Part shown: one piece after another, positions 906-48,500 of the stretch
Layout: every line of letters starts with the position of its first letter
How positions within the stretch are numbered: the first letter of the stretch is position 1
The notes under the pieces: model-generated
What the model was told of the DNA's origin: nothing
Database searches by the model: none
Seen by the model: only the letters and a program-made list of their open reading frames with translations
Position numbers and translations under genes: made by a program
Assembly (NCBI GenBank): GCA_050287085.1
Contig: JBNKBE010000029.1
Span: forward strand, 1 to 64,000
Source: Polyangiaceae bacterium
GTDB lineage: Bacteria; Myxococcota_A; Polyangia; Polyangiales; Polyangiaceae
Direction of reading: 5' to 3'
Length of the DNA stretch: 64,000 nucleotides

Positions 906-1114
906 CGGACGCTGCGGACAGCCGGTTTGGAGCCTTCCAGTTGTTGCCTGAACTGGAGTACCTGCCCCGGCAAGCGGCGGCTACAGTGCATTGTGCGGCC
1001 CATTGGGGTTGCGCGGGCACGTCAGACCGAGGCAGACTACCGCAAAGTCAGAGAACCGAAGTTCGCGTGCCAGCTATTGCAACGGCACGTACTGGAGACC
1101 CGATGGGAGTATGC

Positions 1115-1600: not shown

Positions 1601-1950
1601 TGTTCGGCGCGCTCGGCACTAGCGTCCCCCTGGACGGAGCGGGGCGACGTCTGGTGGATGCGAGCGGAGCCAGTGCGGTCGTACCACGCAGCGCTAGCGG
1701 CTCAACTGGTGCACCGTACAGAATGCGCATCCAGCAAGCGCCAGCGGGGCACCTTCTGCGAGCAGTCTCCGCTGCACAAAGGTGCGGTCCGCAACGACCG
1801 CTGGATTGTTGGCAAGGGGCGGCGGGCCCCCTGGGCTGGTCGCCGGAGCCGCGCGAGCCACGGCGAGTAGACGCTATCCATCGCCAAAGGCCGTCCCATT
1901 GAGCTGAGAGCCGGAGGCCAAGCACCTCCCCCGGCCGCGCGACGAGCAAC

Positions 1951-2557
1951 ACGTTGAGCGCGATCGACGTCGGCGTCGCATCCGGTGTTCTCTAAAGCGT
2001 AACGCAGGCCTTCACGCAGGGGACGCTCTCCTGGGCTTTTGACGGTGGCTCGTTCGACAAAGCCCTATTCAGTGGCCTGCAGTCGAGCGTCTACGGCGGG
2101 GCTGCTCATCGAGGAGTATGTCCACGACATCAACCCTGCCTTGGAGCGAGAGGGACTCACTTTGGACGACATCCGCTACCTGAGGTCGCCGGACACCGGG
2201 CCCGAGACTGCCTCCGTCTCCAACGATGGAACCGGTGTAATACGCTGGGATGAAGACGTGTCCCTCGAGGATCACGTACACGCGCTCCTTCACGAGACCG
2301 CCCACGTAATTCAGTGGAAGCACCTCGGGAACGAAGGATTCAGCAACCGCATTGACTGGGATGACCAGCTCCGCATCAAGGCGAACCAGAATCAGTATTC
2401 CGGCGTGCCGCTGTTCCGCGGCCTGCCTCATGCCAGGTCTCAGTCGCTACATCAGTTCAACCTCACCCACCCTGGTTATACGCTGGAAGCGTCGGCGCAG
2501 GCCTGGGCTGACAACCTCATCGACCCATATGCGGGCGATCCACTGGCAGCTCCATGA
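1951..2557 (+). pseudogene. Degraded pre-toxin linker plus HExxH metallopeptidase-like (DUF4157-like) toxin tip
   Basis: Frame from 1951 reads TLSAIDVGVASGVL*SVTQAFTQGTLSWAFDGGSFDKALFSGLQ, the same linker as 6041-6079. It then shifts frame into a domain with HALLHETAHVIQW and YTLEASA. Confidence 0.6.
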
Positions 2558-3009
2558 ACGTGCGCAAGTGTCTGGCGACTGTGACGGTTTCGTTGCTCCT
2601 CGGCGGGTGTGCGCCATCCGAGGCGGTTACACCGTCCAGGCCCCCCCGGCGATTGGTGCGCAGCTGTCCGCCCCGCGCTGTTGTCCGAGTCGTGCTTGAT
2701 ACGTCAAGTGAGGCAATACTCCTTCGAGCTCGCGCGTGTGGCTCTGACAGCCCATTGGCAATCGAGTTTGTGGCGATCTTCGATGGGCCAAAAGCGGTTT
2801 GTGCGGCAACTCCGATTCGTACGAACCCGGACGGCGTCAAGGAGTGGAACGTATCGCAGGCATGCCCTGACCTGAAGCCGCACGTGCGGTACCACATCGT
2901 CGTCAACACACTGGCCGGAGCGCAAGGCGTCGCTGAGTTTTCGCTGCTGGGGCCCGGCGGCCCCGTCCAAATACACGCTCAGGAATGCAAGCAGGTCACC
3001 TCGAGGTGA
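2554..3009 (+). CDS. Lipoprotein, putative immunity protein (paralog of 5192..5707)
   Basis: Lipobox LLGGC. ATGA overlap with the upstream toxin stop. Confidence 0.7.
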   Translation: MNVRKCLATVTVSLLLGGCAPSEAVTPSRPPRRLVRSCPPRAVVRVVLDTSSEAILLRARACGSDSPLAIEFVAIFDGPKAVCAATPIRTNPDGVKEWNVSQACPDLKPHVRYHIVVNTLAGAQGVAEFSLLGPGGPVQIHAQECKQVTSR

Positions 3010-3341
3010 CGCTGCTACGATACAGCGACCCTGGTTGACGGTTTCAAGTAAACACTCTCCGCCGCAACTCCGTGGGCGACCAAGCCGCCCGTAGCAGTCG
3101 AGCACCTCCCCCGGCCGCGCGACGAGCGCAGCGAGGAGTCCGGCCAAGGGGGAGACGGGCGCTAGCTTGGCATCAAGGATGCACCATTCCGCCCAGTAAG
3201 CTGCGCGCCGCACCCCACGGAAGCCCGAGTGGGGGCCAATCCAATGGGCGCCCGCTTCTACGACCCGCTCTTCTCTACGTTCCTGAGCCCGGACCCACTG
3301 AGCGCGCTGTCTGGGGGCTCACCCCGGATGAACCGGTACGG
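2660..3341 (+). repeat. Approx. 680-bp direct repeat, copy 1 (lipoprotein 3' part + hairpin element + Rhs core start)
   Basis: Aligns by eye with about 5359-6040. The final ~240 bp are near-identical. Confidence 0.85.
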
Positions 3342-3513
3342 CTACGTGGGGTATGATCCGGTGAACTACGTGGATCCGGACGGTCGCTTCGTTGCCGCGC
3401 TGGTGGCTTTCGGTGTCGCATCGGCGTACGCGACGCTCAAGGGGCTCGAAGACGGACACTGGGATACCCGTGTACTACGTTCCGGACCAAGAGCTGCGCA
3501 TCCTGTGGTATGA
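3244..3513 (+). pseudogene. Rhs repeat-associated core fragment
   Basis: MGARFYDPLFSTFLSPDP...NRYGYVGYDPVNYVDPDG is the conserved Rhs core end including the DPxG motif. No upstream YD repeats and the tip is truncated. Confidence 0.85.
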
Positions 3514-3576
3514 TTCCAAAAGTGGGTTCCAGCAGACTCAGGCGCCCCTCATGCCAGTGATGCCTAGCGTTTTCTG

Positions 3577-4962
3577 ATGTACCAAGTGCCCTACTCTGTC
3601 AGAAGAATCTCCCGCTACGGTCAGGTCGTGGTGGCTGGAGCCTTGTGCATTGCGTGTGGAGGCGGAGCCGCTCCCCACCCTCCAGAAGTGCAGCGAGTCG
3701 CGGGGAGCGGGCACGAGGGATTCGAATGGTGCGAGCTCCGGCAAAGTAGTCATCGAGGACCGACCGGCGCATGGGTGCTAGCAGTGTCGAGCGCCGGCAA
3801 CGTTTGGCTGGCGCTCGATGGCGCCTCCGCGCGGCTCTCTCAATTTCTGAGCTTTGATGACCCGCTCCCCCGTGAAAGAGCATTTGTCGCCGAGTGGCGG
3901 ACGAGCTCGGATGGGATGGTGCTCGTCTCCGCTGACGTGGACTACGGCTCTACGACTCAGCGGCTCACCCTCGCGGGAAGATCAGGAGCCTGGACTACGG
4001 GTGGCGGGACCTGGACAGAGAAGGAGGGGAAAGCATTCACCGATCCGACGACGCTTACCTACCTTGGAGATGGGCCACTCCCGGGTGAACGTCTTTCTCC
4101 GTTGGTCGACTGTATGGCGAGCTTCGAAGGGCGTTCGGCCTACCGATGGGACTCCCGGCATTACCGCGACGAATGGGTGGGGATCTCGTTCTCCCCCGAC
4201 GCCGTCGCGCGCGTTCGGAGGGATGGGCGACACGCCGAGCTGGTCGTTGCCTATGAGGGGGGTGACGGACGCCACGCAATCCTCGAACGGACGATTGATG
4301 CCGCAGCGCTGAAGAAGGGCCGCTGGGGGCACTTCACGCCTGACCAGATCGAGCTGAACGGCCCCGCTCTCGAAAGGAGTCTCGGGCCATTCGTGATGGG
4401 TATCAAGGGACTCCCCGGTGCTGCCCAAGAGCGCGAACTGGCCACGGCTTGGTCCGGTGAACAGCTGCCACTGCGTCGAGGCAGCCTGGCTCATTTTCTC
4501 GTGGCCTTGCCTCGCGCTGTCCCCTACGTGGAGCTGATCTATCCAGGGTTGTCGCTCGAGCGATTCAGTGGGGCCGTCCTTGTGTTTCAACGAGTCGTCG
4601 GTGGCGACGTGCTTGAAGTGCCCGCGAAGCAAGCGGGGCGCTCCCCCATCGAGTTGGTGCACGAGCTCGAGGCAAAGGGAATGTGGTACTACGATCAGCG
4701 GGCTCAGCGGCTTCTGGTGGCCTCTTCGCTGGACGGGTCTTCAGAGCGGATCGTTCTGTGTCGCCTCGGGCAAGATGATCGCTTGCTCGAAAGCGCGGCT
4801 CTGATCACCGTCGACGAATTGGCCAGACAGGAGGCGCAACTGCTACCCGTGCCGGCGGCTGCGATGTGCAGGGCACGTCCGGAGCGATGTCCAGCCGAGC
4901 CCGCGGAACTCGAGCTGATACCCATTGGTCCGGCGCGGGACCGACTGAAGCGCCAGCGCTGA
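3577..4962 (+). CDS. Hypothetical lipoprotein
   Basis: 461-aa ORF with lipobox-like VVAGALCIAC-GG. No recognised domain. Confidence 0.6.
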   Translation: MYQVPYSVRRISRYGQVVVAGALCIACGGGAAPHPPEVQRVAGSGHEGFEWCELRQSSHRGPTGAWVLAVSSAGNVWLALDGASARLSQFLSFDDPLPRERAFVAEWRTSSDGMVLVSADVDYGSTTQRLTLAGRSGAWTTGGGTWTEKEGKAFTDPTTLTYLGDGPLPGERLSPLVDCMASFEGRSAYRWDSRHYRDEWVGISFSPDAVARVRRDGRHAELVVAYEGGDGRHAILERTIDAAALKKGRWGHFTPDQIELNGPALERSLGPFVMGIKGLPGAAQERELATAWSGEQLPLRRGSLAHFLVALPRAVPYVELIYPGLSLERFSGAVLVFQRVVGGDVLEVPAKQAGRSPIELVHELEAKGMWYYDQRAQRLLVASSLDGSSERIVLCRLGQDDRLLESAALITVDELARQEAQLLPVPAAAMCRARPERCPAEPAELELIPIGPARDRLKRQR

Positions 4963-5191
4963 CCATCGCTCAGCGCCCGCGAGCGTTGCCTAGCGAGGGG
5001 GCGCCCAGCTCCCGGACCGGGCGAGGGGACGAGCCAGTGGAGCATCGTTGACGCTTGCCCTTCACTCGAACGCCACACGCCGTATCGTCTTGTCGTCAGC
5101 TCGATCTGGGCGGCCGACGGCTCTGCGTTGTTCGTCTTTGACACTGCAGGCAAGGCCAGGCTGTATGACCAAGAGTGCAAGGCGACAGGGG

Positions 5192-5707
5192 ATGAGCGAT
5201 CACGATAGGAGCAAAACGTCAACCGAGCTGAACCCCGCCGTTGGCGAAGGCGCGAAAGCGTTCCGGTGGTTGATCTCCCTGTCGGTCCCTCTGCTCCTCG
5301 GAGCGTGCGCACCTTCCGATGTGGTCATGCCGCCCAGGGCTGCCACGCGACTAGTGAGCAGCTGTCCGCCCCGCCCTGTTGTCCGAGTCGTGTTTGATAC
5401 GTCAAGTGCGGCAATACTCCTTCGAGCTCGCGCGTGTGACTCTGACGTCCCGCTGGCAATCGAGTTTGTCGAGATAGCAGATGGCCCGAAGGTCATTTGC
5501 GCGGCAATTACGGTGCGCACAAACCCGCATGGCGTCATGGAGTGGAACGTCTCGCAGGCCTGCCCTGATCTGAAGCCGCACATGCGGTACCATCTCCTCG
5601 TCAACACGCTGGACGGAGCGCAGGGCACCGCTGAGTTTTCCTGGTTGGGGCCCGGTGGTCCCGTCCAAATACACGCTCAGGAATGCAAGCAGGCCGCCTC
5701 GATGTGA
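5192..5707 (+). CDS. Lipoprotein, paralog of 2554..3009
   Basis: LLLGAC lipobox. Shares SCPPRxVVRVVxDTSS...WNVSQACPDLKPH...GPGGPVQIHAQECKQ. Start uncertain. Confidence 0.7.
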   Translation: MSDHDRSKTSTELNPAVGEGAKAFRWLISLSVPLLLGACAPSDVVMPPRAATRLVSSCPPRPVVRVVFDTSSAAILLRARACDSDVPLAIEFVEIADGPKVICAAITVRTNPHGVMEWNVSQACPDLKPHMRYHLLVNTLDGAQGTAEFSWLGPGGPVQIHAQECKQAASM

Positions 5708-6040
5708 TGCCACTACGATGTAGCGACCCTGGCTGACGGTGTCATATAAACACTCTCCATCGCAACTCCGTAGGCGACCAAGCCGCCCATAGCAATCGAA
5801 CACCTCCCCCGGCCGCGCGACGAGCGCAGCGAGGAGTCCGGCCAAGGGGGAGACGGGCGCTAGCTTGGCATCAAGGATGCACCATTCCGCCCAGTAAGCT
5901 GCGCGCCGCACCCCACGGAAGCCCGAGTGGGGGCCAATCCAATGGGCGCCCGCTTCTACGACCCGCTCTTCTCTACGTTCCTGAGCCCGGACCCTCTGAG
6001 CGCGTTGTCTGGGGGCTCGCCCCGGATGAACCGGTACGGC
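5359..6040 (+). repeat. Approx. 680-bp direct repeat, copy 2
   Basis: Matches about 2660-3341. Confidence 0.85.
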
Positions 6041-6712
6041 GGTGGCTCGTTCGACAGAGCTCTGTTCAGTGGGCTGCAGTACGCGCGGAGCGAAGCGTCG
6101 TACGATACGCAACGTGCTAGCAGGGCGGCAGCCAAGACTCCCACCGCTGACGTGGCGCGGGAGGGGTATCGGACAGCGTGGGAGGCAGCGCGTGGCGCTT
6201 TGGAGCGTTACAACCCGCAGTCGATTCTTTCGAAGGCTCCGAACAATCAGCTATCGACTGGTACCGAGTACGGCGGATTAATCTATGAACGCGGCGGGAG
6301 ATACTATTACACATCTGCGGCTCGCGGCGAGAGGGAAGGTGCCGTTGATCCCTGGCAGCAGCTTGGTGAAGTTCCCGCCGACGCACGGAATAGGATCGTC
6401 GGTGACCACCACACGCACGGCGGACCTAATCCGATTTTCGACGGCGAGGACTTTTCGGGGTTTCACTACGAGATAGGGTCTGGAAGTCAAAGTATGTTGG
6501 ATGGCAGTGACATTCACGAGGCATTTTCAGATCTGACGAAGTATCGTGCGAACATGCTGGAGCCGACGCGATTCACGTCGTATCTCGGAACCCCGCAGGG
6601 TCGCTTCGGTATCTACAATCCGTCGTTGGGCATTGTTTTCCACTTCAGCCCGAACGCGAGACTTCTCCCAGCGGGGTGGTCCGTCTCGGCATCGGCTTAC
6701 TCCTGGCACTGA
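5942..6712 (+). CDS. Orphan Rhs tip with internal deletion and DUF4329/JAB-like toxin domain
   Basis: MGARFYDP...NRYG is joined directly to GGSFDRALFSGLQ, so the DPxG segment is missing. The C-terminal domain has EYGGLIY..YYYT, HTHG and FS..D motifs typical of DUF4329. Confidence 0.75.
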   Translation: MGARFYDPLFSTFLSPDPLSALSGGSPRMNRYGGGSFDRALFSGLQYARSEASYDTQRASRAAAKTPTADVAREGYRTAWEAARGALERYNPQSILSKAPNNQLSTGTEYGGLIYERGGRYYYTSAARGEREGAVDPWQQLGEVPADARNRIVGDHHTHGGPNPIFDGEDFSGFHYEIGSGSQSMLDGSDIHEAFSDLTKYRANMLEPTRFTSYLGTPQGRFGIYNPSLGIVFHFSPNARLLPAGWSVSASAYSWH

Positions 6713-6714
6713 CG

Positions 6715-7185
6715 ATGAGAGCTACTCCCTTGCTTTGGCTGACGATGCTTCATGCTGGATGTGCGGCATCGGTTACGGAGGCGACGCAACCACCTAGCGG
6801 CGCAGCGGAGAGCGTTTCTGCGAGTCCGGAGCCGGCGAGCGGACGGGGCCCAGTCGAGGCATGTCGGCTGGGAGAGCTATCGGAAAGCGTGTCGCTGGTG
6901 ACATTTCGGGAGCTGCTTCGCGATCCGGAGCCCTACTATGGGCAACGAGTGCGAATGCGAGGATATTTCATATTGGCGCTGGAGAACACGGTCCTATTGG
7001 AACCCGTTCGCCGTCAGGAGAGTGTCCGCGTTGACTTCAAGAACCTTCCGGCCAAGACAGCTGAGCAGCTTCTTGCGTGTCGGTTGAAAGCAGTGGAGTT
7101 GCAGGGATACGTCACGCATGTGCCGCATCGTGGAAAGGAGAGAGTTTTTATTCTTGCGGATGCAATGGCGACCGCGAGGAAATGA
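6715..7185 (+). CDS. Lipoprotein, putative immunity protein (OB-fold-like motif)
   Basis: LHAGC lipobox and an ELLRDPEPYYGQRVRMRGY motif. Starts 2 nt after the toxin stop. Confidence 0.65.
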   Translation: MRATPLLWLTMLHAGCAASVTEATQPPSGAAESVSASPEPASGRGPVEACRLGELSESVSLVTFRELLRDPEPYYGQRVRMRGYFILALENTVLLEPVRRQESVRVDFKNLPAKTAEQLLACRLKAVELQGYVTHVPHRGKERVFILADAMATARK

Positions 7186-7348
7186 AACCGCAGCGTTGAT
7201 TGAGCGAGCGAGGTAGCGCGGCGAAGCGACTCGGAGCTGGTCCGAGTTCGATGCGTGGTCGAGAGCGCCGGTCACACCCTCACTCAGATGCCCCCGTGCA
7301 GCACAGCGCTGGCTCCCCCCTTCTTGCGCAGCGATTCCGCTGTCTCTT

Positions 7349-7680
7349 GACGTCTGGTGGATGCGAGCAGGCCAGTGCCGTTGTGCTGTGATACGCTGCC
7401 AGCTCGACGGGGCTGCACTGCAGCTGGGACTCGGTCACCGTTTGCCCACGGGTGACGCTGCCACCGTACAGCGACCCGATCCGACTGTGTCAGGTAAACA
7501 CTCTCCACCGCAACGGCGTAGGCCACCAAGTCGCCCGCATCAGTCGAGCACCTCCCCCGACCGCGCGACGAGCGCTAGCGAGGAGCCGGGCAAGGGGGAG
7601 GCAGCGCCCGCAGGGCAAAGCCCGAGGACGCTGGGAGGGGGCCAAACCAGGCGCGGACGTTGGGTGGGGCCCAACCCATA
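7349..7680 (+). repeat. Longest copy of the inter-module repeat
   Basis: Contains segments matching 1647-1680, 3005-3150, 5703-5850 and 141-243. Confidence 0.75.
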
Positions 7681-15556: not shown

Positions 15557-15684
15557 GCGACGTCGGGCGCTGCGACGTCGGGCGCTGCGACGTCGGGTGC
15601 TGCGACGTCGGGTGCTGCGACGGCGGTGCTGCGACGGCGGTGCTGCGACGGCGGTGCTGCGACGGCGGTGCTGCGACGTCGGGT
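15557..15684. repeat. Tandem repeat: 4 x 15 bp (GCGACGTCGGGYGCT), then 4 x 14 bp (GCGACGGCGGTGCT), then a partial unit
   Basis: Read directly from the sequence. Intergenic. Confidence 0.9.
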
Positions 15685-17889: not shown

Positions 17890-18492
17890 TTAGCCAGCCC
17901 TGCGCCTACTCTTCGCCGCTTCCTCGGTGATCCGTAGCTGCTCGAGCAGCGCTCCGTCCGCCGACAGGAAGCAGATGCGAAGCACGTGTGGCTCTCTGCC
18001 GACAACAACATTGCCGTCGGAGTCGAACAGGCACCCAGTGCGCGTCTGTGATGTCCAGCCGCGCGAGCGAAGGCCAGTCTTCGCCTCCTCAATCAGGGCG
18101 GACGCTTGGGCGTGTGTGTTCTTCAAAGCCGGCGTGGACGAGAAGTACGGTGAGAGCGGGGCGGTCGGGTCAAGCCACTCGACAAGACGCGGGTGGTGGT
18201 CCACGGTTCGGTCAGGGAAGGCGTAGGGCTCCGCCATTGCGGGTTCCGGGACGGCGGGCTTCCCCTCTGGTAGGGGTCGTACTGCAGGGGATTGCTTTGG
18301 CACTACCGCAATGCGCCCGGATTCCGCCGCGGCGCGGTCGTCTGTCGCGGCGTGGTCGTCTGTCGCGGCGTGGCCGTCTGTCGCGGCGTGGCCGTCTGTG
18401 GCACTGTGCGGCTGCGAGAGCGTAGGGCGATGGCACGAGACGACGGAACCGAGTGCGACGCTTCGCATGAGGTGTCTGATCGAGGCATGCAT
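17890..18492 (-). CDS. Lipoprotein-like cassette gene, probably chimeric
   Basis: Starts just after attC 18512-18586, and its stop lies in GGCTAAC (R'' pattern). 18-bp repeat x4 (ATDGHA) at 18329-18400. The C-terminus resembles that of 1115..1600. Confidence 0.5.
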   Translation of the reverse strand: MHASIRHLMRSVALGSVVSCHRPTLSQPHSATDGHAATDGHAATDDHAATDDRAAAESGRIAVVPKQSPAVRPLPEGKPAVPEPAMAEPYAFPDRTVDHHPRLVEWLDPTAPLSPYFSSTPALKNTHAQASALIEEAKTGLRSRGWTSQTRTGCLFDSDGNVVVGREPHVLRICFLSADGALLEQLRITEEAAKSRRRAG

Positions 18493-20274: not shown

Positions 20275-20489
20275 GTTCCTCCTTCGAGACCCCGGCGAGC
20301 AGCCGTCTGGCCGCTTGCGTCGCGCCCTTGCTGGTGGACCGCAACCATACCACTGAGTTCGGCGCTGCTCCATTTGAGGTTTGCCCCGCGAGCTGTCAGT
20401 GAGAACGTGAGGCTGTTTCCTGCGGAAGTTCGCAGGAAAGCTGGCGGCGCCCTGCCTTCAGGAGGAGGCAAGTTATGGGTCCGCCCAAC

Positions 20490-20679
20490 GAGGCCGTAGG
20501 AGAACCCACCTGCGAGGCGAGCGCAACCTCGCCGGTCCCCGATTGGCGGATTTTTGTGATCCATGTCCAGGGCTCGCGTCTCGTTCGCCCCAGCGGCGCC
20601 CTCAGGGCGCCGCTGGGGCCCTGCTAGGCTCTGCCTGGCGGGGTGGCGCCCGCTATCTTTTCTATGTTGTGGACCAACG
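20490..20679 (-). mobile_element. IS1182-family right-end remnant (190 bp)
   Basis: Near-identical to 27353-27542. Begins immediately after GCCCAAC. Confidence 0.8.
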
Positions 20680-21158: not shown

Positions 21159-22202
21159 CTACGAATCTTCATTGGCGATATGGGTAGTCCGTCCAGTTGA
21201 GAGCGCAATCGCCAGACGCCTCAGTATTCTGGGCACCGCGACGTCCAGCCAGTTGAGCGCTGCGGAGATCGCAGGCTCCTCGGCGTGCCCCGAGTGCAGT
21301 AGCGAACTGCGGACATCGTATGCGTTCTTTATGTTCCTCTCGGCCTCGTCTTCAGTTTCCTCCAGCTCGAGTGCGTGCTCGCGCGCCATTCGCCGTAGGC
21401 CAGCCGAAATCGATTCCCGCTTCAGAGCCGCGATGCGAGCGCGTACACGCTTGACGGCAGCGGCAGACTCGGGGTCTTTGTCGGTCTCGTCAGAGTCAGA
21501 AAGAGCCGTGAGCGCCTTCTCGAGCAGCTGCACGTCTCGCGGTGCGACGTGAGCAGGCGGCAGGAGTGTTTCGAGTGATGTTGTCAGAGAGACGAGGCGA
21601 GCGCGACCAGACTCACCGAGGGCCGTGGCGTAGAGCTCGATCGCCAAAGATAGCCGCGCGTCCCGCGCTACTGCGTCTGGCTGCCGGAGGCCCAGGTTCT
21701 CAGCGAGCCGCTTCAATAGACGCGCAGCTGGCGTCTGGATTGTTGCATGGACATCCCCGGCTCCGTACTCCGTGATGCGCAAGTGGTCCGGCACTATTGC
21801 GGCTGGCGAGCTATGAATCCAACCATCAAGATGAGTCCAGCCGGTGGCCACTAGAAACCGAAAGTTCGGGTTCTGTTGGATGTCGATTGGCGCGTCCTCC
21901 ATGTTCACCGTCTGCAGCCGAGTCTCGGGAATCAAGCTGAAACCGTCTTCCACTACGAGCTGAAGCACTGCACCAGCGAGCTTCGGTAGAAACTCCCTGG
22001 CATCCGACTCTTTGGAGAAGCCAGCAATGAGCAGCCTGTCGCGGCCACTGACGCGGAGCGCTTGGAGGGAAAGCCCGTTGAGCTCAACCCGGCCGTCCTC
22101 GTGGGCCGTCAACATTCGCCCAGGTCCGACGCGAACAGGGACGCTGAGTGTGTAAGCAGCAGGGCCGGTGCCCGAAGAGGCCTTCCGTATGTAGAGGTTC
22201 AT
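21159..22202 (-). CDS. ApeA-like HEPN domain protein (putative RNase)
   Basis: RLVSLTTSLETL helix and C-terminal YDVRSSLLHSG (RxxxxH). Confidence 0.7.
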   Translation of the reverse strand: MNLYIRKASSGTGPAAYTLSVPVRVGPGRMLTAHEDGRVELNGLSLQALRVSGRDRLLIAGFSKESDAREFLPKLAGAVLQLVVEDGFSLIPETRLQTVNMEDAPIDIQQNPNFRFLVATGWTHLDGWIHSSPAAIVPDHLRITEYGAGDVHATIQTPAARLLKRLAENLGLRQPDAVARDARLSLAIELYATALGESGRARLVSLTTSLETLLPPAHVAPRDVQLLEKALTALSDSDETDKDPESAAAVKRVRARIAALKRESISAGLRRMAREHALELEETEDEAERNIKNAYDVRSSLLHSGHAEEPAISAALNWLDVAVPRILRRLAIALSTGRTTHIANEDS

Positions 22203-22503: not shown

Positions 22504-22824
22504 TCAGTCTTCTCTGAATCCGCAAGCGACGAGCAGAGCGGTTTCGACATCGAGCCAGCGCTCGTTGGGAAGTGTGCAAATGACGGCACCGATTCGATCG
22601 CGTTGCGCGAGCGACACGTGGTCGAAGTTGAGTGCAGAGGTGGTTGGCATCCCGTCATCCTCAGTAAGGATCACCTCAGTCGAGAGGCCACGGATGGTTC
22701 GAGTGACCGGGGCGACGATGATTTCGTTGAGACGCCCGAGGACACTGTCCCTGGTCAGGATGAGTACAGGTCAGCGTTTGTCGGGGGAGCGAAAGGTGTA
22801 CCAGCGGATATCGCCTCTGTTCAC
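22504..22824 (-). pseudogene. mazF: PemK/MazF-family toxin with premature stop
   Basis: Manual translation MNRGDIRWYTFRSPDKR*PVLILTRD..LNEIIVAPVTRTIRGL..EV.L...GMP...LNFDH. TGA at 22771-22773 replaces the Arg of KRRP. Confidence 0.9.
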
Positions 22825-23024
22825 TCGAAGTTCTCCCAGCCGTCAGCGTCCCAGGCGAGGGGGTCTACATCAGAATCAAACTCATCGGGGGAAACTGGTG
22901 CAGCTTCATACGTTTGAGCGTCAGTTCTTGAATTGGCTGCGAGTTTGAACAGACGCAGCCGTTCTTTGGGGCTGAGACGGGTGAAAAGCGGAAGGAGCTC
23001 TTCTGCTGTCAGGGGCTGAGCCAT
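22821..23024 (-). CDS. Putative antitoxin upstream of the MazF-type toxin
   Basis: 67 aa with an acidic C-terminus. GTGA overlap with the toxin start. Confidence 0.7.
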   Translation of the reverse strand: MAQPLTAEELLPLFTRLSPKERLRLFKLAANSRTDAQTYEAAPVSPDEFDSDVDPLAWDADGWENFE

Positions 23025-23968: not shown

Positions 23969-24916
23969 TCAGTGTGACAGCACTGGCGCTGGTGGCGCCG
24001 ACGGCGTTGAACTCGGCACGAGCGATGGCGAGCGAGGCACCATAACGTACTTGATGTAGTAGAGGCACAACTCAAGACGGAGTCGTGACTCGAAGCACGG
24101 CAGGAGCGTCGTTCTGATCTTCTCCTTTGCCTCCAAGTCAGCTTCTTCACAAAGCTGCTTGCCATAGGTGCTAATGGACAGGGCGGCTGAGAAAACCGCC
24201 CCGTCTACTGGGAGCTCCAGACGATGAACTATGATCGATCCAATGGACGCTTCGCCATCGCGGGTACTCGCTACATAGGACTTCTCACGAATCCCAGTTC
24301 GCTTGTCCGCGTGGAAGAGGAAGCCACGGTCTCTCGCCACCATCACGTGATGAAAGCCAGTTCGCGAGTCGTTCGCGAGCGCGTCAAGCTCAAGGTCGTC
24401 CTCACTATTGATTCGGACGAGCCACCCCCAGCCATCGCCGACATCGCATGCGAGGCTGACACCGACTTGATCGATGTCCATACCGTGAACGTCTACGAGC
24501 GCTCGCTGCAGGTGTTCCAGGATGCACCGGAGCTGCACCTCAGGGCGTGTGATTTGCTCAAACGGATGAGCGGGAAGAGGGCACTTCTCCTTCCTCACGA
24601 AACTGGCAAAACGCTCAAACTTGGCGCGTGTGATTCCGTTGGTCGACTTGAGAAGGCGTGCCAGAACGTAGTCGTTGTTGTTCCGGACCGTGATCTCATA
24701 GTTAACGGCTTTGGCCTTGGCGATCGAGAACGCGGAGGCAAGGACGATGACAACCGTACCCAGAACCAGTTCGAGCGTGCCAATCTCGATGTCGAACAGC
24801 CGCAGAGCAAGACCGACAAGTCCGGGAAGCGGCGGGATTAGGCCCGCGACTAGCCAGTGTTCGACGAAAAATGCGAACACCCGACGCGGCCACCGCTGCG
24901 CTCCCCCGGGGTCCAT
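23969..24916 (-). CDS. Two-TM membrane protein with a GAF-like-looking cytoplasmic domain
   Basis: Two N-terminal hydrophobic helices; GSII...L....AALSISTYGKQL C-terminal pattern. Confidence 0.65.
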   Translation of the reverse strand: MDPGGAQRWPRRVFAFFVEHWLVAGLIPPLPGLVGLALRLFDIEIGTLELVLGTVVIVLASAFSIAKAKAVNYEITVRNNNDYVLARLLKSTNGITRAKFERFASFVRKEKCPLPAHPFEQITRPEVQLRCILEHLQRALVDVHGMDIDQVGVSLACDVGDGWGWLVRINSEDDLELDALANDSRTGFHHVMVARDRGFLFHADKRTGIREKSYVASTRDGEASIGSIIVHRLELPVDGAVFSAALSISTYGKQLCEEADLEAKEKIRTTLLPCFESRLRLELCLYYIKYVMVPRSPSLVPSSTPSAPPAPVLSH

Positions 24917-25299: not shown

Positions 25300-25456
25300 G
25301 GCTAACGCCCTGCCATTCTGCCGCCGCGCAGGGCGCCACAGGTTACAACGACCGGCCTCCACGACCAACGGGAGTGAAGAGGCGGCGGCCGCGGGATGAC
25401 GTCTCTGCGAAGCGACAGCCTACACGGTCGCGGTCGGCAGAAATCGCCTGTTTGCC
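25300..25456 (-). other. attC site
   Basis: GGCTAACGCCCTGCCATTCTGCCGCCGCG...CGCGGTCGGCAGAAATCGCCTGTTTG. Confidence 0.75.
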
Positions 25457-25475: not shown

Positions 25476-26999
25476 TCATGGTCCGGTGGAGTCAACGCGT
25501 CCAAAGATCGCATTCAGTGCACCGGAGATCCGGGAGGACTGGGTTCTTAACGCATCGAGGGTAGTCTTTAGCTGCCCGTCGTGAACCTGAATAAGTCGAA
25601 TGTACTTGCCTGAATCGATATCGGTTGCATCGAAAAGGATGTCGATGACCCGACCGTTGGCGATAGACCCGGTAGCATGCCACAGGAAGCGCGGCAGACT
25701 CCGTCCAAGCAAGCCGTGCATCTCTTCATTGGAGGGTAGGGACCACGTCGCGGCGTCCGCGCGAAAATCTCGAAGCGATGTGAGTCGCAAGTCCCAGGTG
25801 ACGTTGCCTAGTTGAGGCACGATCGCGCTTAGGACGCGAAATATAGTGTCGAGGTCCAGGAGGTCCTTTAGAGGTCGCCGGAAGGAAAGTCGTATCTTGT
25901 TGTAGAGCGGGAAGAGTACAGCTTGGGGAATTGCACGGATTCCAGCGTACTGACCCCCCAGGCCCCAGGAGGTCGAGAGACTCCAGTCGGGAGTGCCTGA
26001 GGCGGCACCAAATTCCATCCTGGCGTGAGGGCCGACCTGGTCGTCATGTACATACAGCTTGTCGATTCCCGACGAGCGCAGCAGTGTATTCCCAAATATC
26101 GGTGGGTCTTGGTTGGACGGGATGCTGTAGCCCGTAGTGGCGGCCGCGTGATAACCGATCTCGACAGGCGTGCCGTCTTGTTCACCTACGATCTTGAAGA
26201 TGAGTAGGCCGGGAATGCCTCCCGCGACGTAGGCATAGATTGCGGCTTTGGTCGCGAGTTCATCGGCAGCGTCGACATAAAATGGTTCCAAACCGATTGA
26301 GCGAATGGCGTGGGCCATTTGTTCGATTGTCAGTCCGTCTGCATTCGGGAAAACCCGCTGACGCATGGGCATCCGGTCAGTTGCCCAACGGGTGATCTCT
26401 ACCGGCGAGAGCGGGGAGTGCTGGAATGTCTGACCGGTCACATTGAGCGCAGACCAAAGTGCACTGGTGGCACATGCTGCGGTCACCTGGTCTTGTTCCT
26501 GAAAGGGGACGGTGCTGACAGCAAGCTCCAGACCGGACAGATTGGCTCGGCAGCTCACGCTGGTCGTGAAATGTCGACGGCCACCGTCCGAATCGTAGTG
26601 AGCTAGAGCGGTTCTGCCGACCACGCTGCGAGGTAGCGGTCTAACCACCAAGAAGCCGCGATAGCTTTGCTTAATAGCTTCTGCTTCTTGACCCTCTGGA
26701 GCCCGAATCGCAGTGAAGAACTGACTTTGGTCGAATGTCGAGGCAAAGAAGTGCAGACGTGTACAGTGACGTTTGTACGGATGAAAACACTTTACGTAAT
26801 AAGCGGCGAAGTCGTTCAGATAGTCATGGTCCACATAGGGCCTTTCGACGACCATCGTTTCGACGCCAACCCGGGCGAAGTAGTCCTCAAAGTAGCGATT
26901 CTTGAGCTTCGCCGCGATGAGCTCGGCTGAAGCTTCGGATGCCACCCTTAGCTGCTCGGCGAAGCTCTCTATTGAATATGCCAGAACAGCGGTCGACAT
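25476..26999 (-). CDS. Uncharacterised papain/C39-like cysteine peptidase-fold protein
   Basis: FQEQDQVTAACATSALW (Gln...Cys), GYHAAATTGY (His), LYVHDDQVGP (Asp). Confidence 0.7.
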   Translation of the reverse strand: MSTAVLAYSIESFAEQLRVASEASAELIAAKLKNRYFEDYFARVGVETMVVERPYVDHDYLNDFAAYYVKCFHPYKRHCTRLHFFASTFDQSQFFTAIRAPEGQEAEAIKQSYRGFLVVRPLPRSVVGRTALAHYDSDGGRRHFTTSVSCRANLSGLELAVSTVPFQEQDQVTAACATSALWSALNVTGQTFQHSPLSPVEITRWATDRMPMRQRVFPNADGLTIEQMAHAIRSIGLEPFYVDAADELATKAAIYAYVAGGIPGLLIFKIVGEQDGTPVEIGYHAAATTGYSIPSNQDPPIFGNTLLRSSGIDKLYVHDDQVGPHARMEFGAASGTPDWSLSTSWGLGGQYAGIRAIPQAVLFPLYNKIRLSFRRPLKDLLDLDTIFRVLSAIVPQLGNVTWDLRLTSLRDFRADAATWSLPSNEEMHGLLGRSLPRFLWHATGSIANGRVIDILFDATDIDSGKYIRLIQVHDGQLKTTLDALRTQSSRISGALNAIFGRVDSTGP

Positions 27000-27025
27000 C
27001 GCTTCGTGGAGATCGACTCAGAAGT

Positions 27026-27214
27026 TCAGAGCGTAATCGGTGTCCGAAGCTTCCGTGGATCGAGGCACTCCGCTTGTTTCAGAATCTGCAGGGCACGGCT
27101 CTGCGATTTGCTGTAGGCGTCAAACTTCGTGGCGGCGTCTTCGCTACGCACAAAGTTTTCCACTGCGGATTTCAACTCTCGCAGGGTCTGCTCGTTGTCG
27201 GAGGCATTCGGCAC
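27026..27214 (-). CDS. 62-aa partner protein, copy A
   Basis: GTG start gives 62 aa. Gapless homology to 28971..29159. Lies 26 nt upstream of the peptidase. Confidence 0.7.
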   Translation of the reverse strand: MPNASDNEQTLRELKSAVENFVRSEDAATKFDAYSKSQSRALQILKQAECLDPRKLRTPITL

Positions 27215-27226
27215 GGTACGCAAAGG

Positions 27227-27254
27227 ATTCTGGGAGAGTCTGATCATTTGTCAA
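27227..27254 (-). promoter_or_regulatory. Possible sigma70-type promoter for the small-protein/peptidase pair
   Basis: Minus strand TTGACA-N16-CAGAAT just upstream of the GTG. Confidence 0.35.
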
Positions 27255-27352
27255 GGCGAAACAGGTTCGCCCTGGTATCGCGATTTCGCTGGGACACGCT
27301 GCAATATCCACGCCAAAGGCGAACCACAGGCTCTCAGCTTGGTCCGCCCAAC

Positions 27353-28132
27353 GAGGCCGTAGGAAAACCCACCTGCGAGGCGAGCGCAACCTCGCCGGTC
27401 CCCGATTGGCGGATCTTTGTGATCTATGTCCAGGGCTCGCGTCTCGTTCGCCCGGGCGGCGCCCTCAGGGCCCCGCTGGGGCCCTGCTAGGCTCTGCCTG
27501 GCGGGGTGGCACCGGCTATCTTTTCTATGTTGTGGACCAACGTGAAGAGCTGCCACTGGGCGCTCACTTTGCGCTGCCCGCGCAGCGTGAATCGACGCAT
27601 ACCCTTGTTCTGCAAGTTGCCGAAGACGGGTTCGACGGTGCCCATACGGCGGCTGTAGAGCTCTCTGCCGACGGGGCTGTCGAACTTGAAACGCATTCGC
27701 TCGGCGGGTGAGCTGTGCTTGGGTCGGTGCTTTGGTAGTGGCCCAACCTGCTCTTTGATCACGGTCAGCTGACGCTGCGGAGTACGGTAGGGATGTCGCA
27801 GACACTGGTGTCGCAGATGGCAGCCGCGACAGGCCGTCAGCGGCGCTCTGAAGCGGTCGACGAGGTAGCCGTTGAACAACATGCTGGTGCCGCTCTTGTA
27901 AAGCCTCTGCCCCGCGGGACAGATGCAGAGCGCTCGCGCTGCGTCGTAAGAGGCCCTTCGTAGCCCGACCCGTGAGGCTCAGCCTGGACGACGAATTGGC
28001 CGCGCTCATCTACGACGGCAAGTCCGTTGTTCCCTGCAGAACGCCGCGAGAGCTCGTCGTCTTCGCGCTCTCGGGATCGGTGAGGTTGCTCTTCTGTTCG
28101 TTGCCAGAGGGGCCGCGCTTCTTGCCGACCTC
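27353..28132 (-). mobile_element. Internally deleted IS1182-family element flanked by AAC on both sides
   Basis: Transposase fragments KSNLTDPESAK..GVLQG..VVD..Q and YSRRMGTVEPVFGNL..KGMRRFTLRG..KV..QW.L..LVHNIEK. Context GCCCAAC|GAGG...CCTC|AACGGCTTG. Confidence 0.8.
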
Positions 28133-28291
28133 AACGGCTTGCCAATAGCCCGCGAGGAGCTACCGGCAAGACCTTTCAGGTAGCGAGGCTACCGGCAAAC
28201 CGTGGCGGCTACCAGACGCCACCTTCAGGAGACCTTCAAGCTGAGCGAGGCGCTTCAGGCGCCCCGTCGGAGTTTCTTGGCCTTGGTGGGC
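28133..28291 (-). other. attC site
   Basis: AACGGCTTGCCAATAGCCCGCGAGG...CCCCGTCGGAGTTTCTTGGCC, closely similar to 20928-21088. Confidence 0.85.
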
Positions 28292-28297
28292 CTGGGG

Positions 28298-28723
28298 TTA
28301 ACTTTTGTGGGTCCAGCCGCCACCCAACTGGCGTTCTCGAAACTGCTCTCGCAGCTCACTGCGAGCATTGCCCGCAAGAAGTTCGCAGGGGTCGAACCAG
28401 TGCTCGGTGACGCGGCGAGCGAGAACAACGGGGAGAGCGCCAATGAACTCAGCGTTGTCGGGGCAGCGTAGGTGCCAAAGGCCGTAGCGTTCAGGTGGCT
28501 CGCGGAGGCAGATAACCTCTTTCACGCCACCGTTGCAGTTCGTCGCGACGACAACGATCGGTCCTGGAAGCTCGCCTCGAGGCACACGGATAACGATGTC
28601 GTGGTGGAACTCACCCTGCTGCCAGTGGTCCACGAGTTCGTACGACCCAAACTCAGACTTCAAGAGCTCCAGCAGCGAGCTCAACACCATCGAGTCAGCG
28701 AGTCTTTGAATGAGCATTGGCAT
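28298..28723 (-). CDS. Conserved-looking hypothetical cassette protein
   Basis: HWQQGEFHHD, VATNCNGGVKEV and HWFDPCELL motifs. Stop lies 6 nt from the attC. Confidence 0.7.
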   Translation of the reverse strand: MPMLIQRLADSMVLSSLLELLKSEFGSYELVDHWQQGEFHHDIVIRVPRGELPGPIVVVATNCNGGVKEVICLREPPERYGLWHLRCPDNAEFIGALPVVLARRVTEHWFDPCELLAGNARSELREQFRERQLGGGWTHKS

Positions 28724-28739
28724 AGGTTGCTAGTCCAGG

Positions 28740-28943
28740 CTAGTACGCGGCGAAGTCGTCGATGTAGTCGTGATCGATGTAGTCGCGTTCGACGACGATC
28801 GTCTTGACCTGGAGCGTCTTGAAATAGTCCTCGAAGTAGTTCGAACGCAGCTTGCTTCCGACAACCGCTTCCGACGCATCGGTGTTTTGGATGAGGAGCC
28901 TTCGGAGAGCCTCAATGCTATACGATTCGACTTGGAAAGGCAC
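28740..28943 (-). pseudogene. Truncated paralog (N-terminal 67 aa) of the 25476..26999 peptidase
   Basis: YSIE..KL..YFEDYF...V.T.VVER.Y.DHDY..DFAAY aligns without gaps to the N-terminus of copy A, then TAG. Confidence 0.85.
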
Positions 28944-28970
28944 AGTGCAGCGCGAAGTCCCTGGCGGACG

Positions 28971-29159
28971 TCAGATTGTTACCGTCAAGCGCAACGTCTG
29001 GGGATCCAGCTCCTCCGCCTTGTGCAGCGTTTCGACGCGGTTCACGACTGGGGGCTCGATCGAAGCGAAAGCGCGATCTGCGTCTCCATTGGACAAGCGC
29101 GCCTCGACCTGTTCCATAACGCCCTTGAAATGCTCAGCATTTTTGTCGTTAGTCGGCAC
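28971..29159 (-). CDS. 62-aa partner protein, copy B
   Basis: GTG start with GAGGAG RBS; C-terminal LHKAEELDPQTLRLTVTI; lies 27 nt upstream of the truncated peptidase. Confidence 0.7.
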   Translation of the reverse strand: MPTNDKNAEHFKGVMEQVEARLSNGDADRAFASIEPPVVNRVETLHKAEELDPQTLRLTVTI

Positions 29160-29251: not shown

Positions 29252-29328
29252 CGGCTCTGGGTTTAACCCGTGAGCTCAGCAAGGCGAGGTGCTGCCAGCC
29301 CCGCCGGCTTCAAACCCCCTTGTTGGGC
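29252..29328 (-). other. Internally deleted attC (relative of 19280-19435)
   Basis: CTGGGTTTAACCCG...CAGCAAGGCGAGG.GCTGC.AGCCCCGCCGG.TTCAAACCC..TTGTTGGGC. Confidence 0.75.
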
Positions 29329-30740: not shown

Positions 30741-30904
30741 CCCCGGAAGTTGTCGAAGTCTCCGGGGGCGCTCCCGTAAGCCCCCAAAAGTTCTCAAGGT
30801 CTTGGGCTGGGCTCCGGGGAGGTCCCAAAAGTTCTCGAAGTCTGGGGTTGAGCTCCGGGGAGGCACGCCCAGGCTCTCAAAGTCTCCGGGTGGGCTCCGG
30901 GCAG
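30741..30904. repeat. Degenerate tandem repeat of about 41 bp (4 copies)
   Basis: Consensus approximately CCCAAAAGTTCTCGAAGTCTNGGGNTGGGCTCCGGGGAGG at 30741, 30781, 30823 and 30864. Confidence 0.6.
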
Positions 30905-45512: not shown

Positions 45513-48500
45513 ATGCACCTCATAAACAACGCCCCATATGGACTCTTGGTAGCGAGCCTGGCCCTATCAATGAGCGTTGCCTGCTCCAGTGGTGGAGCGA
45601 ACAACTCGAGCGATACCGACACAGGCATCAGTACCGGTGCCGACACGGACGCCGGTACTGATGCCAGCACGGGAACGGATACGGATACCGGCACAGGTAC
45701 CGACACCGACACCAGTACCGACGTCGACGCCAGTACCGACACCGACACCAGTACTGACGTCGATACCAGTACCGACACCGACACCAGTACTGATGCCGAC
45801 ACAGGCACCAACGAAGACCCCGATACAGACGAGGAGCCGTACGTCGACACGGGTCCCGATGGATTCATACACCCCTCTCTCCCCACCACTTTGGAGGAGC
45901 TGGACACCATCAAGGCCAACCTCGACAAGGAACCTTGGAAGTCGGGATATGCTGCGTTAGCAGCTGATGGTCGATCGCAGCTCGGATATGTGATGGGCGG
46001 CCCGTTCCGGGTGGTGAAACGCAACCCTCACGAGAACCTCTGGCCGTGGCGGGGAGACATGAGCGCTTTCTATCAACTCGCCCGGATGTGGTACTTTACG
46101 GGCGACGAGGCGTACGCCGAAAAGGCGCGGGAGATCATCATCGCGTGGGCGACCACCCACGAGGTCTTTGGCGGTAACGAATCTGGTCTCGATCTGGGGG
46201 ACTACGCCATCGCCTATGGCGGCGGCGCTAGCATTCTTCGCGGCACCTGGCCCGGCTGGACGCGGGAAGACACGATCACGGTACAGAATTACTTCCGGAA
46301 CATTCTTTGGCCCGCCACTGCTGCTCCCAACAACATCTCCGGCCCTGCCAACAAAGGCTCACTCAATTTGGTCGCCGGCGCCGTGATCGCCGTCTTCTGC
46401 GACGACACCGAGATGTTCAACCACGTCGTTGACGTCTTCCGCAATTATCCGGGCGCTGGCCTACCGAATATTCTCGCCACGGGACAGATGGGTGAGACGG
46501 GGCGCGACTGGGGTCACGCGTACAACGACCTCTTAGCTCGCACCCTCACCGCCGAGATCCTTTGGAAACAAGGCATCGACGTTTACTCGGCATCGGACAA
46601 CCGACTGCTTGCCGCCGGCGAATACCACGCTCGCAACACCTCGAGCTTTGACACGCCCTTCGTTCCGTACGGCACCGTCGATTATACCTACTATGCGAAC
46701 GCTGGCGGGCTGAACAGCCAGGACCGGGGCGCCTATTACCTTCTCCAAAACGCGTACAAGAACCGCCTCGGTCTGCCCACGCCCTGGATCGATCGGAAGA
46801 TCAAGGAGCAAGGGGTACACGGCGGCAATTTCATGTTTGCCAAGACCGCCGACTTCTCTACGGCCACGGCACCACCAGTCGATCCGCGTCCGGCGGTTTC
46901 CCCGGCTTCGAACGGCTTGACCCTGACTACCCTTGGCGGACAAACGGAGGGAAGGAGCGCCTCCTATTCGGACGGGGTATGGACGGTCACCGGCCTCGGG
47001 AGCGGAGTATGGACTGATGGCGTCGACGACAGCCAGTTTGTCTACAGGGAGATGAGCGGCGACTGCGCCATGGTTGCTCAAGTCACTTCGACAACGTTCT
47101 CGGGTTCACAGAACGGCAAAATAGGTCTGATGATCCGCGACAATCTGGTCGGCGAGGTTTCGCAACGCTCCTGGATCGGAATCGTAGCCACGGAATCCGA
47201 TGATCACCTAATTGAGGCCCGCTCTGACGGCTGGACGGTGACGTGGGGCGGAGGCAACTGGGCGAAGCGCTCTCAGGGCCTACCGCTCCCGCTGCCCTAC
47301 TGGCTCAAGATCGAACGCAAGGACGATGTCATCACGAGCTACACCTCTCAGGACGGCACCAGTTGGTCGCCCATCGTCAGCTCGGACTTCGGCAATCTGC
47401 CGTCCACCGTTTACGTCGGTATCCATGTCTCCAGCGGAACTGAGACGCCCAACACGGCCACCTTCGAGAACCTCTCCTACACTGGTGGCACGGGCGGTCT
47501 CGTGACCACGCCGGCCGCGCCAGCGACCCTGCTCGCCTCGGGCTCGGACAAAGCTGTCACCCTGCGCTGGCTACCCTCCTTCGGCGCCACCGCCTACGAT
47601 ATCCTCCGCTCCACCATCTCCGGCAGCGGCTACGAGGTCATCGCCAGCGATCTACCCGCCGACAAGACCAGCTATGTCGACACGGATGTCATCCTCGACA
47701 CAACCTACTACTACGTTGCTCGCGCCAAGAACTCCGCCGGGACCAGCGAAAATTCGCCCGAGTTCTACGCTGCGCCGCTGTCGGTACCGCTGATGATGCT
47801 CTCTCTGACCGGCGGCAGCCCCGACGACCAAGCCGGTAACGCGGCCAATGCCGCGACCGCCTTCGATGACGATTTCAACTCCTTCTGGTTCAACGAAGGG
47901 ACGACCGGCTGGTTGCAGTATGACTTCGGGACCAACTCCGCTCAGATCATCAAGCGCTACACGATCACCAGCGCCACTTTGATCCCCGAGCGCGATCCCA
48001 AGGACTGGCAGTTCCAAGGCTCCCATGACGGCAGCGACTGGACCACGCTCGACACACAAGCCGATCAGACCTTCGAGTTCCGCGCCCATCAGAACACCTT
48101 CGACATCGAAAATAGCACCGCCTATCGATACTATCGGCTTAACATCACCGCCAACAACGGCGACGCCGATTTCCTGCACCTCAGCGAACTTGGCCTATGG
48201 GGTGACAACGGTCGCGTGATCCCTGACGGCCTTTACCGGATTGCCAGCCGCAGCAGCAACAAGGTCATGCAGGTAAAAGGAAGCACCGAGGGCGCACCTG
48301 TCGTGCAGCAGGCCTTCGACGGGAGCGACAGCCAGCTGTGGAATATCCAGTGGCAGGGGGAGGGGCGCTACAACTTCACGCACGTGGGCAGCGACCAGGC
48401 GCTCGACAATGGCGGCACTTCCGACCCGGACGAAAACCTCGTCATCCAGCCCTCGGGCGGAAGCGACAGCCAGCTCTGGACCTTGGTTCCCAACGCTGAC

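Follow-up and report, generated by a model that had tools for sequence, protein, structure and literature searches.

A stretch of 64,000 nucleotides (nt) from a Polyangiaceae bacterium (assembly GCA_050287085.1, contig JBNKBE010000029.1, positions 1 to 64,000), referred to here as the window, carries on its minus strand two copies of a gene pair in which a gene for a protein of 62 amino acids (AA), the partner, lies upstream of a gene for a putative cysteine protease, the enzyme (Table 1). In a preliminary description of this DNA the small genes had been given GTG starts, 17 identities between their products and gaps of 26–27 nt to the enzyme genes, and all of these coordinates check out; the 507-AA enzyme of copy A and the 67-AA truncated enzyme of copy B were confirmed as well. 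The two small proteins align without gaps (17/62 identities) with a score of 63 vs. a maximum of 54 for shuffled sequences (0/2000 shuffles as high), and the gap to the enzyme gene is 26 and 27 nt in the two copies. Between the enzymes 31 of 63 residues are identical; codon positions 1, 2 and 3 agree at 36, 42 and 25 of 63 sites, and the lowest value at the third position is the pattern expected under protein-level selection. At the DNA level the small genes agree at 80 of 189 bases, again with third codon positions lowest. The two copies are thus old and not the product of a recent duplication.

For small gene A an alternative upstream ATG at 27247 would give a product of 73 AA. As the promoter-like site of cassette A overlaps this ATG, the 62-AA start is favoured; two such promoter-like sites were found vs. 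a shuffle mean of 0.9, a weak excess based on consensus match only. In copy B the partner gene is intact and the enzyme is not. No continuation of enzyme B was found in other frames, and a genome search for further enzyme pieces returned the two window matches only. The break carries a short CTAG direct repeat and runs directly into a gene for a 141-AA protein, suggesting a deletion, so that the break is probably a deletion junction. A single contig of run X1 spans it with zero differences, although X1 is possibly the source sample and hence not independent. The 141-AA gene (28298-28723, minus strand) is unnamed and has a second copy, 68% identical, at G000:C54:3035-3422.

Table 1. Features of the two gene pairs and their flanking sites (window coordinates)
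Feature	Position	Strand	Remarks
Enzyme gene A (P0001)	25476..26999	-	507 AA; model pLDDT 94, pTM 0.93
Enzyme A N-terminal domain, residues 1-137	26589..26999	-	conserved E52, Y55, D63, R81, H83
Enzyme A papain-clan (C39-like) core, residues about 138-369	25893..26588	-	fold match
Putative catalytic codons, enzyme A	Cys176 26474-26472; His284 26150-26148; Asp319 26045-26043	-	roles suggested by topology
Enzyme A C-terminal domain, residues 370-507	25479..25892	-	predicted docking surface for partner helices
Small partner gene A	27026..27214	-	GTG 27214 to stop 27026, 62 AA; helical body, conserved tail L51-L62
Small partner gene B	28971..29159	-	GTG 29159 to stop 28971, 62 AA, intact; GAGGAG ribosome-binding site
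Enzyme remnant B	28740..28943	-	67 AA, stop TAG; ends ahead of catalytic core
Sigma70-like promoter consensus	27227..27254	-	10/12; within cassette A, 13 nt before GTG
attC-like site closing cassette A	25300..25456		R boxes 6/7 complementary
attC-like site upstream of cassette A	27346..27452		far end uncertain (27452 or 27492); R-box scan
attC-like site preceding cassette B (68 bp)	29261..29328		best fit to attC consensus

Fold of the enzyme and predicted complex with the partner

Enzyme A gave no family match in Pfam, PADLOC or NCBIfam (E 0.1), in PHROGs or among PDB sequences, so that Pfam models do not place it in C39; clusters with 11% Peptidase_C39_2 provided a weak lead in the Atlas. Its homologues form 1634 clusters at 90% identity among 8000 scored candidates. 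Across 117 of the 120 homologues listed (three short ones were excluded from the alignment) residues Q167, Q169, D170, C176, H284, H318, D319 and D320 are invariant, and the Cys motif is kept in 9/9 distant members checked. The modelled core resembles 51 chains at Z of at least 8, and nearly all of the 50 fold matches listed are papain-clan proteins by title. These include staphopain C (Z 15.7), the pseudomurein endoisopeptidase PeiR (13.9), the C39 peptidase LahT (13.2) and phytochelatin synthase (2btw, 12.9), values within 1 Z being tied; UfSP, ZUFSP and Josephin-type deconjugases are also present, and phage lysins head the viral matches. In the model C176 opens helix 175-192, H284 lies within strand 277-292 and D319 ends strand 314-319. 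Topology and contacts thus point to Cys176, His284 and Asp319/320 as the putative catalytic set of a papain-clan peptidase. Both the papain/C39-like character and the Gln/Cys-His-Asp arrangement proposed earlier are borne out, the former by the predicted fold and the latter by the invariant residues.

Enzyme A starts with a folded domain instead of a signal peptide in the model. When folded alone (pLDDT 88.6), the N-terminal domain reached a best Z of 3.9 and no Foldseek match at E 0.001, which is not proof of a new fold. An origin of the N- and C-terminal domains by internal duplication was rejected (hhalign probability 0.2%). Longer forms of the enzyme with an extra C-terminal domain occur at L104 3956-6115, L106 3836-6016 and in P0271 (719, 726 and 1049 AA). 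This extra domain has conserved G-H-P, A-R-I-x-G-E and S-G-R-Y motifs and resembles nameless, stand-alone Atlas proteins of ~160 AA (score 0.93); attempts to identify it, including PHROGs, gave no match, and it is possibly an effector released by self-cleavage. A search for longer forms yielded one protein among 8000 candidates of 1004-2865 AA, a weak result.

The partner family comprises 1428 clusters at 50% identity, and its profile, in which both window copies are included, matches copy A at E 5.6e-10 and copy B at E 9.7e-8. The small open reading frames (ORFs) gave only chance-level rows in Pfam, PADLOC and NCBIfam (E 0.1), PHROGs and PDB sequences supplied no family name either, and 74 partners compared with PADLOC v2 matched four families, each by one member at E 0.003 or weaker. 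The conserved C-terminal tail noted from the two window copies holds for the family, although in a broader form than first described, namely V/I-D-P-x2-L-x2-P-[FVIM]-T-[LIV]-stop. Among the best 150 partner matches, a set biased toward the consensus, 132 end at the motif and 18 were set aside (9 extended, 9 not parsed by the pattern); of the 132 counted, 126 have Thr at position -2, 122 have Pro at -4 and 121 have Leu at -7. At positions -12, -11, -7 and -4, counted from the stop, 72 partners show V/I/L, D/S/N, L and P, respectively. None of the 72 ends in Gly and none has a membrane-length hydrophobic stretch (maximum 19-residue hydropathy 0.84), while charge spans -10 to +12. In the distant subfamilies L095, L100, L103 and L106 some tails are one residue shorter or lack the Thr. 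Five homologues (P0222, P0230, P0172, P0192 and P0268) run 12-51 residues beyond the motif; two of these have short extensions that resemble each other and may represent cleavable precursors, not errors. Similarities among partners and among enzymes covary (rho 0.50, 0/999 permutations, 69 pairs), as expected for linked genes.

Co-folding of enzyme and partner, as proposed in the preliminary description, gave a score of 0.79 vs. 0.00 for the best control; the mark applied is reached by 116/157 solved and 2/215 mismatched pairs, counts that are only roughly valid for the alignments used. Runs share at least 97% of contacts, with partner pLDDT of at least 84. In the model the partner helices touch enzyme residues 372-394 and 476-494, and the interface of ~150 contacts wraps this separate domain. 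Partner residues 55-62 meet C176-A177, 220-226, 281-285, Q321 and W345 of the enzyme, the contact pairs listed including 283 with 60 and 224 with 56 to 60. The tail is accordingly predicted to lie across Cys176/His284 in the active-site cleft. Its hydrophobic residues at -12/-7 and Pro at -4 are in register with Leu-12, Leu-7 and Val-4 of the LahT leader (PMC6363468), and the tail reads as a C39-type leader without a core peptide. The P1 residue would be Leu62 or, alternatively, Thr61 with Leu62 as P1′.

Pairing, neighbours and genomic setting

That homologues should carry an upstream small ORF was a check named at the outset, and the claim withstood it: the partner scores at least 9 bits in 156 of 160 loci (80 GTDB and 80 metagenome). 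Of the four partnerless loci, three have an enzyme starting at the contig 5′ edge and one an enzyme without its 5′ end. Among the GTDB loci the partner is upstream in 72, partial at a contig edge in one, downstream in three, fused in one and absent in three (two of them contig-edge loci, the third without the enzyme 5′ end), a count that is partly circular, as the profile was built from these 72, themselves chosen by pattern. The metagenome loci stood outside the profile; there 69 partners are upstream, 9 downstream and two below 12 bits, so that 78/80 reach at least 12 bits and one more scores 10.3 with the right tail (best background 12.4), although there are duplicates within this set and between it and the GTDB loci. 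This conserved pairing bears out the earlier claim of selection on the pair. The fused locus (L063 5977-7716, 579 AA) has the partner at the enzyme C-terminus with the tail still free. In a FastTree phylogeny of 133 of 155 enzymes (22 near-duplicates dropped; four long-branch joins flagged) the fusion is nested in a clade with downstream partners, its sister being a downstream-order locus (support 100).

The enzyme was found in 12/401 genomes of the phylum, and the 80 GTDB loci cover 17 named phyla. Cultured bacteria with intact copies include Methylotenera versatilis (L015), Mangrovimonas (L062) and, on a plasmid, Shewanella baltica (L104), while E. coli genomes gave no match in a search at the DNA level only, which is hence weak. 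Four plasmid relatives (24-33% identity) each have an annotated gene for 52-60 AA upstream, scoring below 10 bits on the partner profile and with diverged tails. No enzyme match was obtained among 50,697 phage records and just four loci came from IMG/VR viral contigs, so that a phage origin was rejected; two of these four score on the partner profile, and L189 has, as judged by eye, a diverged small ORF in place. In the reverse search the partner profile matched 8 places in 7/401 genomes, of which 7 adjoin an enzyme and one is an orphan (G081:C29:102077-102322, L199), situated 5 nt before a DUF6933-domain gene. The latter was rejected as an enzyme relative, being unrelated; the orphan's cluster also contains a DUF3427 helicase, a phosphotransferase and an AAA_14 ATPase. 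A broken enzyme with an intact partner was seen at 4/160 loci, at L094 and in window copy B, and no intact enzyme with intact flanks lacked a partner among the 160 loci. Such loss asymmetry, with a dead enzyme and a kept partner, would be typical of toxin-antitoxin pairs.

The pair's loci often lie amid defence genes, in line with the expectation in the preliminary description: 23 of 123 neighbour ORFs (the nearest, hand-picked from 451) match PADLOC at 1e-8, with no matched control. Adjacent defence genes include GajA, HamA, BrxL and Cas6. The Hma defence system at L078 is interrupted by the pair, which is inserted after hmaA and before hmaB, and in the closest GTDB relative (L001) an Abi_C gene follows directly downstream. 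An obligate third gene was rejected, the largest neighbour cluster being present at 9/80 loci.

E1, E2 or Ubl genes are found in the 5-6 kb flanks of 12/80 GTDB and 17/80 metagenome loci (29/160) and of 2/4 plasmids; 131/160 loci have no such match in the flank, many contigs being short, and the window ORFs scanned contain no E1, E2 or Ubl genes. With two JAB-only loci the linkage extends to 31 loci, 20 of which are among the 133 tree enzymes, where 13 changes are needed to explain it. A CapH-like gene immediately precedes the pair at 16 loci that gave no match to the CapP probe, mostly divergent from an E1/JAB/Ubl operon, and 12 other loci carry IrrE/CapP too (including L106). Order capH without capP, then the pair, is exemplified by L022, L045, L054, L064 and L066, among others, and several small genes of these operons have no Pfam name. 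According to Ye et al. (PMC11601596), CapH and CapP stand beside 168/544 Bub operons, for which no phage protection has so far been shown; the link to Bub/Bil operons provides a handle on this question.

Between ~17.7 and 30 kb the window's minus strand consists of unrelated genes with repeated hairpins between them. Sites were scanned for as R′′/R′ boxes and hairpins against an attC consensus rather than with a calibrated attC model. The constrained fold of the site at 25300-25456 is within 0.5 kcal/mol of the minimum, the site from 27346 belongs to a repeat also present at 20478-20679, and cassette B no longer has a 3′ attC of its own. The sole IntI above cut-off in the genome (440 bits) is on contig C15, near the contig end and beside a related repeat (172694-172742), in an assembly of 160 contigs; with none on C29, the contig of the attC array lacks an integrase. 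Repeats related to the attC-like hairpins are found on other contigs too, and IntI-like genes in the related loci probed gave no match above 60 bits. The earlier reading as integron cassettes stands in part: attC-like sites flank the genes (by consensus), but the contig has no integrase and the related loci probed no IntI match above 60 bits. An integron setting of the pair has been seen only in this genome.

Further cargo of the array includes GNAT, MtlR-like, transposase and PemK/MazF-type genes. The PemK/MazF-type gene forms a toxin-antitoxin-like cassette with an overlapping gene for 67 AA (22504-23024, minus strand) and has an internal stop at codon 18, the part past the stop giving a Pfam E of 4e-7. 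A 202-nt repeat, 96% identical at 27341-27542 and 20478-20679, combines a DDE transposase 3′ end with an attC-like element; related copies on several other contigs were found, and it is possibly an insertion sequence travelling with or targeting attC. Two unnamed cassette genes (21159-22202, 347 AA, and 23969-24916, 315 AA, both minus strand) had no noteworthy match in Pfam, PADLOC or PHROG and are candidates for further defence genes. Elsewhere in the window we noted a second dispersed-repeat family (D2, D4, D6, D7, D18) between genes at 140-7650, and short tandem arrays at 15557-15682, 18323-18394, 30742-30898 and 45611-45856 with periods of 14-15, 18, 41 and 12-36 nt, respectively.

Possible functions of the pair

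We favour, at somewhat better than even confidence, the reading that the pair is a type II toxin-antitoxin-like or anti-phage module composed of a papain-clan protease toxin and a product-like plug. The large protein would be a cytoplasmic papain-clan cysteine protease, as suggested by its fold and its invariant Cys, His, Asp and Gln. The small protein, proposed earlier as substrate, inhibitor or trigger, is on the basis of the model best taken as a dedicated inhibitor, with helices placed on the enzyme C-terminal domain and a tail of fixed length in the cleft. This tail would stop at the catalytic cysteine or one residue beyond, and its likeness to a C39 leader with no attached core suggests a product-like plug. 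The plug may be lost, for example, when it is degraded, when a phage protein displaces it or when the host is shut off; the freed protease would then cut a conserved host or phage target and so arrest the cell, with the conserved N-terminal domain as a candidate for target binding or sensing. Here the module would reside in attC-bounded cassettes, one intact and the other with a dead enzyme and a kept plug. Like toxin-antitoxin pairs it is a two-gene operon with the small gene usually first, and in the model only, the partner binds directly over the toxin active site; the PemK/MazF-type cassette in the same array was also counted for this reading. A plugged toxin is preferred because of the large interface, the lack of anything releasable past the cleft, the shorter distant tails, and the loss of enzymes with partners kept.

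Several observations weigh against this interpretation. The tail-in-cleft geometry fits a substrate or a modifier equally well, and the co-fold pass may partly reflect remembered C39-leader structures. Broken enzymes in assemblies are possibly sequencing errors, and the asymmetry count is biased, since loci were found via enzyme motifs. The PADLOC neighbour count is uncontrolled, with some generic matches (AAA, methyltransferase) among its hand-picked ORFs, and many loci lie amid housekeeping genes. Finally, a plain toxin-antitoxin model leaves the recurrent linkage to Ubl operons (29/160) unexplained.

This linkage (12/80, 17/80 and 2/4 plasmids; 13 tree changes) would be accommodated by an ATP-independent tagging immune system, in which a papain-clan transpeptidase clips the Thr-Leu bond, holds the partner as a thioester on Cys176 and ligates this 60-AA helical modifier, then comparable to ubiquitin or Pup, to an amine of a phage or host protein. 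We regard this as unlikely, yet it draws on several features: the penultimate Thr in 126/132 counted best matches (18/150 set aside) with a hydrophobic residue at -3, as papains usually prefer at P2; the modelled Q321 contact, which, motif-aligned to the primed side, may fit one residue past the scissile bond; the free C-terminus kept even in the L063 fusion; and phytochelatin synthase (2btw, Z 12.9) among the fold matches. Phytochelatin synthase performs such a transfer with glutathione, and sortase does so after Thr. On the other hand, an interface of ~150 contacts with a separate domain resembles an inhibitor more than a turned-over tag, distant tails (L095, L100, L103, L106) are one residue shorter or without Thr, no partner ends in Gly (0/72), and orphan partners and dead enzymes suit antitoxin logic better. 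The same neighbours would also suit a regulatory protease of adjacent immune operons, silenced by the plug and cleaving a CapH-type repressor instead of CapP, or trimming Ubl conjugates. The 16 loci with CapH and a silent CapP probe speak for it, as do UfSP, ZUFSP and Josephin-type deconjugases among the fold matches, and in described loci CapP occupies the pair's position (10.1101/2022.04.27.489752). Yet at 12 other loci an IrrE/CapP gene is present too, several such operons already own a JAB peptidase, and 131/160 loci, like the window, have no E1/Ubl/E2 match nearby, so that this role seems quite improbable.

The small protein could itself be the active agent, either a latent effector freed by cleavage, by the logic of Pepco or EACC1, or a required activator, as the Gol peptide is of the Lit protease. 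A substrate would show the same tail-in-cleft geometry, and small effectors that are encoded next to proteases and activated by these are established in defence (PMC12642450). However, with at most one residue past the cleft in most members (132/150 end at the motif), cleavage would release next to nothing; the partners are devoid of hydrophobic segments (19-residue hydropathy at most 0.84), their charges range from -10 to +12, and they persist alone when the enzyme is dead, which leaves this explanation with very little probability. We give least weight to a function outside conflict, that is, a peptide-processing or cell-wall hydrolase with the partner as a chaperone-like propeptide in trans. 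Staphopain, PeiR and C39 leader peptidases are among the top fold matches and phage lysins lead the viral ones, but the pair comes without a transporter, a tailoring enzyme or any obligate third gene (largest neighbour cluster 9/80), there is no core peptide behind the motif, the window enzyme opens with a folded domain and no signal peptide, and the distribution is patchy and mobile. The plugged protease toxin thus remains our preferred reading.

Comparison with known systems

The preliminary description had put the pair forward as a previously undescribed system, and no match to any described one was obtained in the family models, solved sequences and literature searched. In PADLOC v2 neither window protein had a system match at E 0.1. 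The pair is absent from the passages of PMC11601596 on Bub/Bil operons, the words 'protease' and 'peptidase' occur 0 times in the available text of 10.1101/2024.07.02.601686, and no description of the pair was found in the literature listings and text passages searched, mostly of open journals and including passages of PMC13373217. We conclude that the module is real, widespread and apparently undescribed, and that both proteins are large families nameless in the libraries searched. If the favoured reading is true, a papain-clan protease toxin would be paired with a core-less leader peptide as antitoxin, an arrangement we did not find described; if tagging is true, it would be a third bacterial protein-conjugation route beside E1/E2 chemistry and Pup ligation. 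In either case a useful tool would result, a protease-plug pair that can be controlled or a ligase that needs no ATP.

Bub/Bil operons with CapH/CapP (PMC11601596 and 10.1101/2022.04.27.489752) are frequent neighbours, and the pair is often on the regulator's strand, but the pair itself holds no E1, E2, Ubl or JAB and most loci, including the window, lack such operons. Protease-effector modules (Pepco, EACC1, MBL, hydrolase; PMC12642450, main text) share the small gene beside a protease, the defence setting and, in the model, the partner at the catalytic cysteine. Their proteases are trypsin-, caspase- or subtilisin-like and fused to sensors, 'papain' and 'C39' occurring 0 times in that main text, and their small protein is a pore-former freed by removal of a sizeable piece. 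Tox-PL1/Imm35 and Tox-PLC39 combine a papain-like toxin with a proposed peptidase-inhibitor partner, and Tox-PL1 has a D-x-Q signature after the His, comparable to D319-D320-Q321 here. As described in PMC3482391, these domains are C-terminal in secreted RHS/WXG toxins, unlike the stand-alone, three-domain enzyme with no export module, which has no Pfam match to polymorphic-toxin papain families.

In its presumed working the pair resembles staphopain-staphostatin or a type II toxin-antitoxin pair, and in its predicted binding a C39 peptidase with bound leader. The C39 peptidases (LahT147, PDB 6mpz; ComA; PCAT1) are similar in core fold (Z 13.2, root-mean-square deviation 2.3, 136 residues aligned), in the Gln-Cys-His-Asp order and in the partner tail, with its hydrophobic residues at -12/-7 and conserved -4. 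Unlike C39/PCAT proteins, the pair has no ABC transporter, Gly-Gly or core peptide, and the enzyme has ~140-residue extra domains at both ends; a fused or linked ABC exporter, or a Gly-Gly leader with core peptide, was absent from the pair loci and tails examined. Staphopains are secreted with a propeptide, and their operon-linked staphostatins are beta-barrels of ~105 AA. The best fold match of the enzyme is staphopain C (Z 15.7, root-mean-square deviation 3.3, 172 residues aligned), and by the entry titles (PDB 1pxv, 1y4h) the staphopain-staphostatin pair likewise consists of a papain-clan protease and a small dedicated inhibitor bound through the active site. The pair described here differs in that identity to staphopain is 12% and the partner is a short helical chain predicted to use its free C-terminus.

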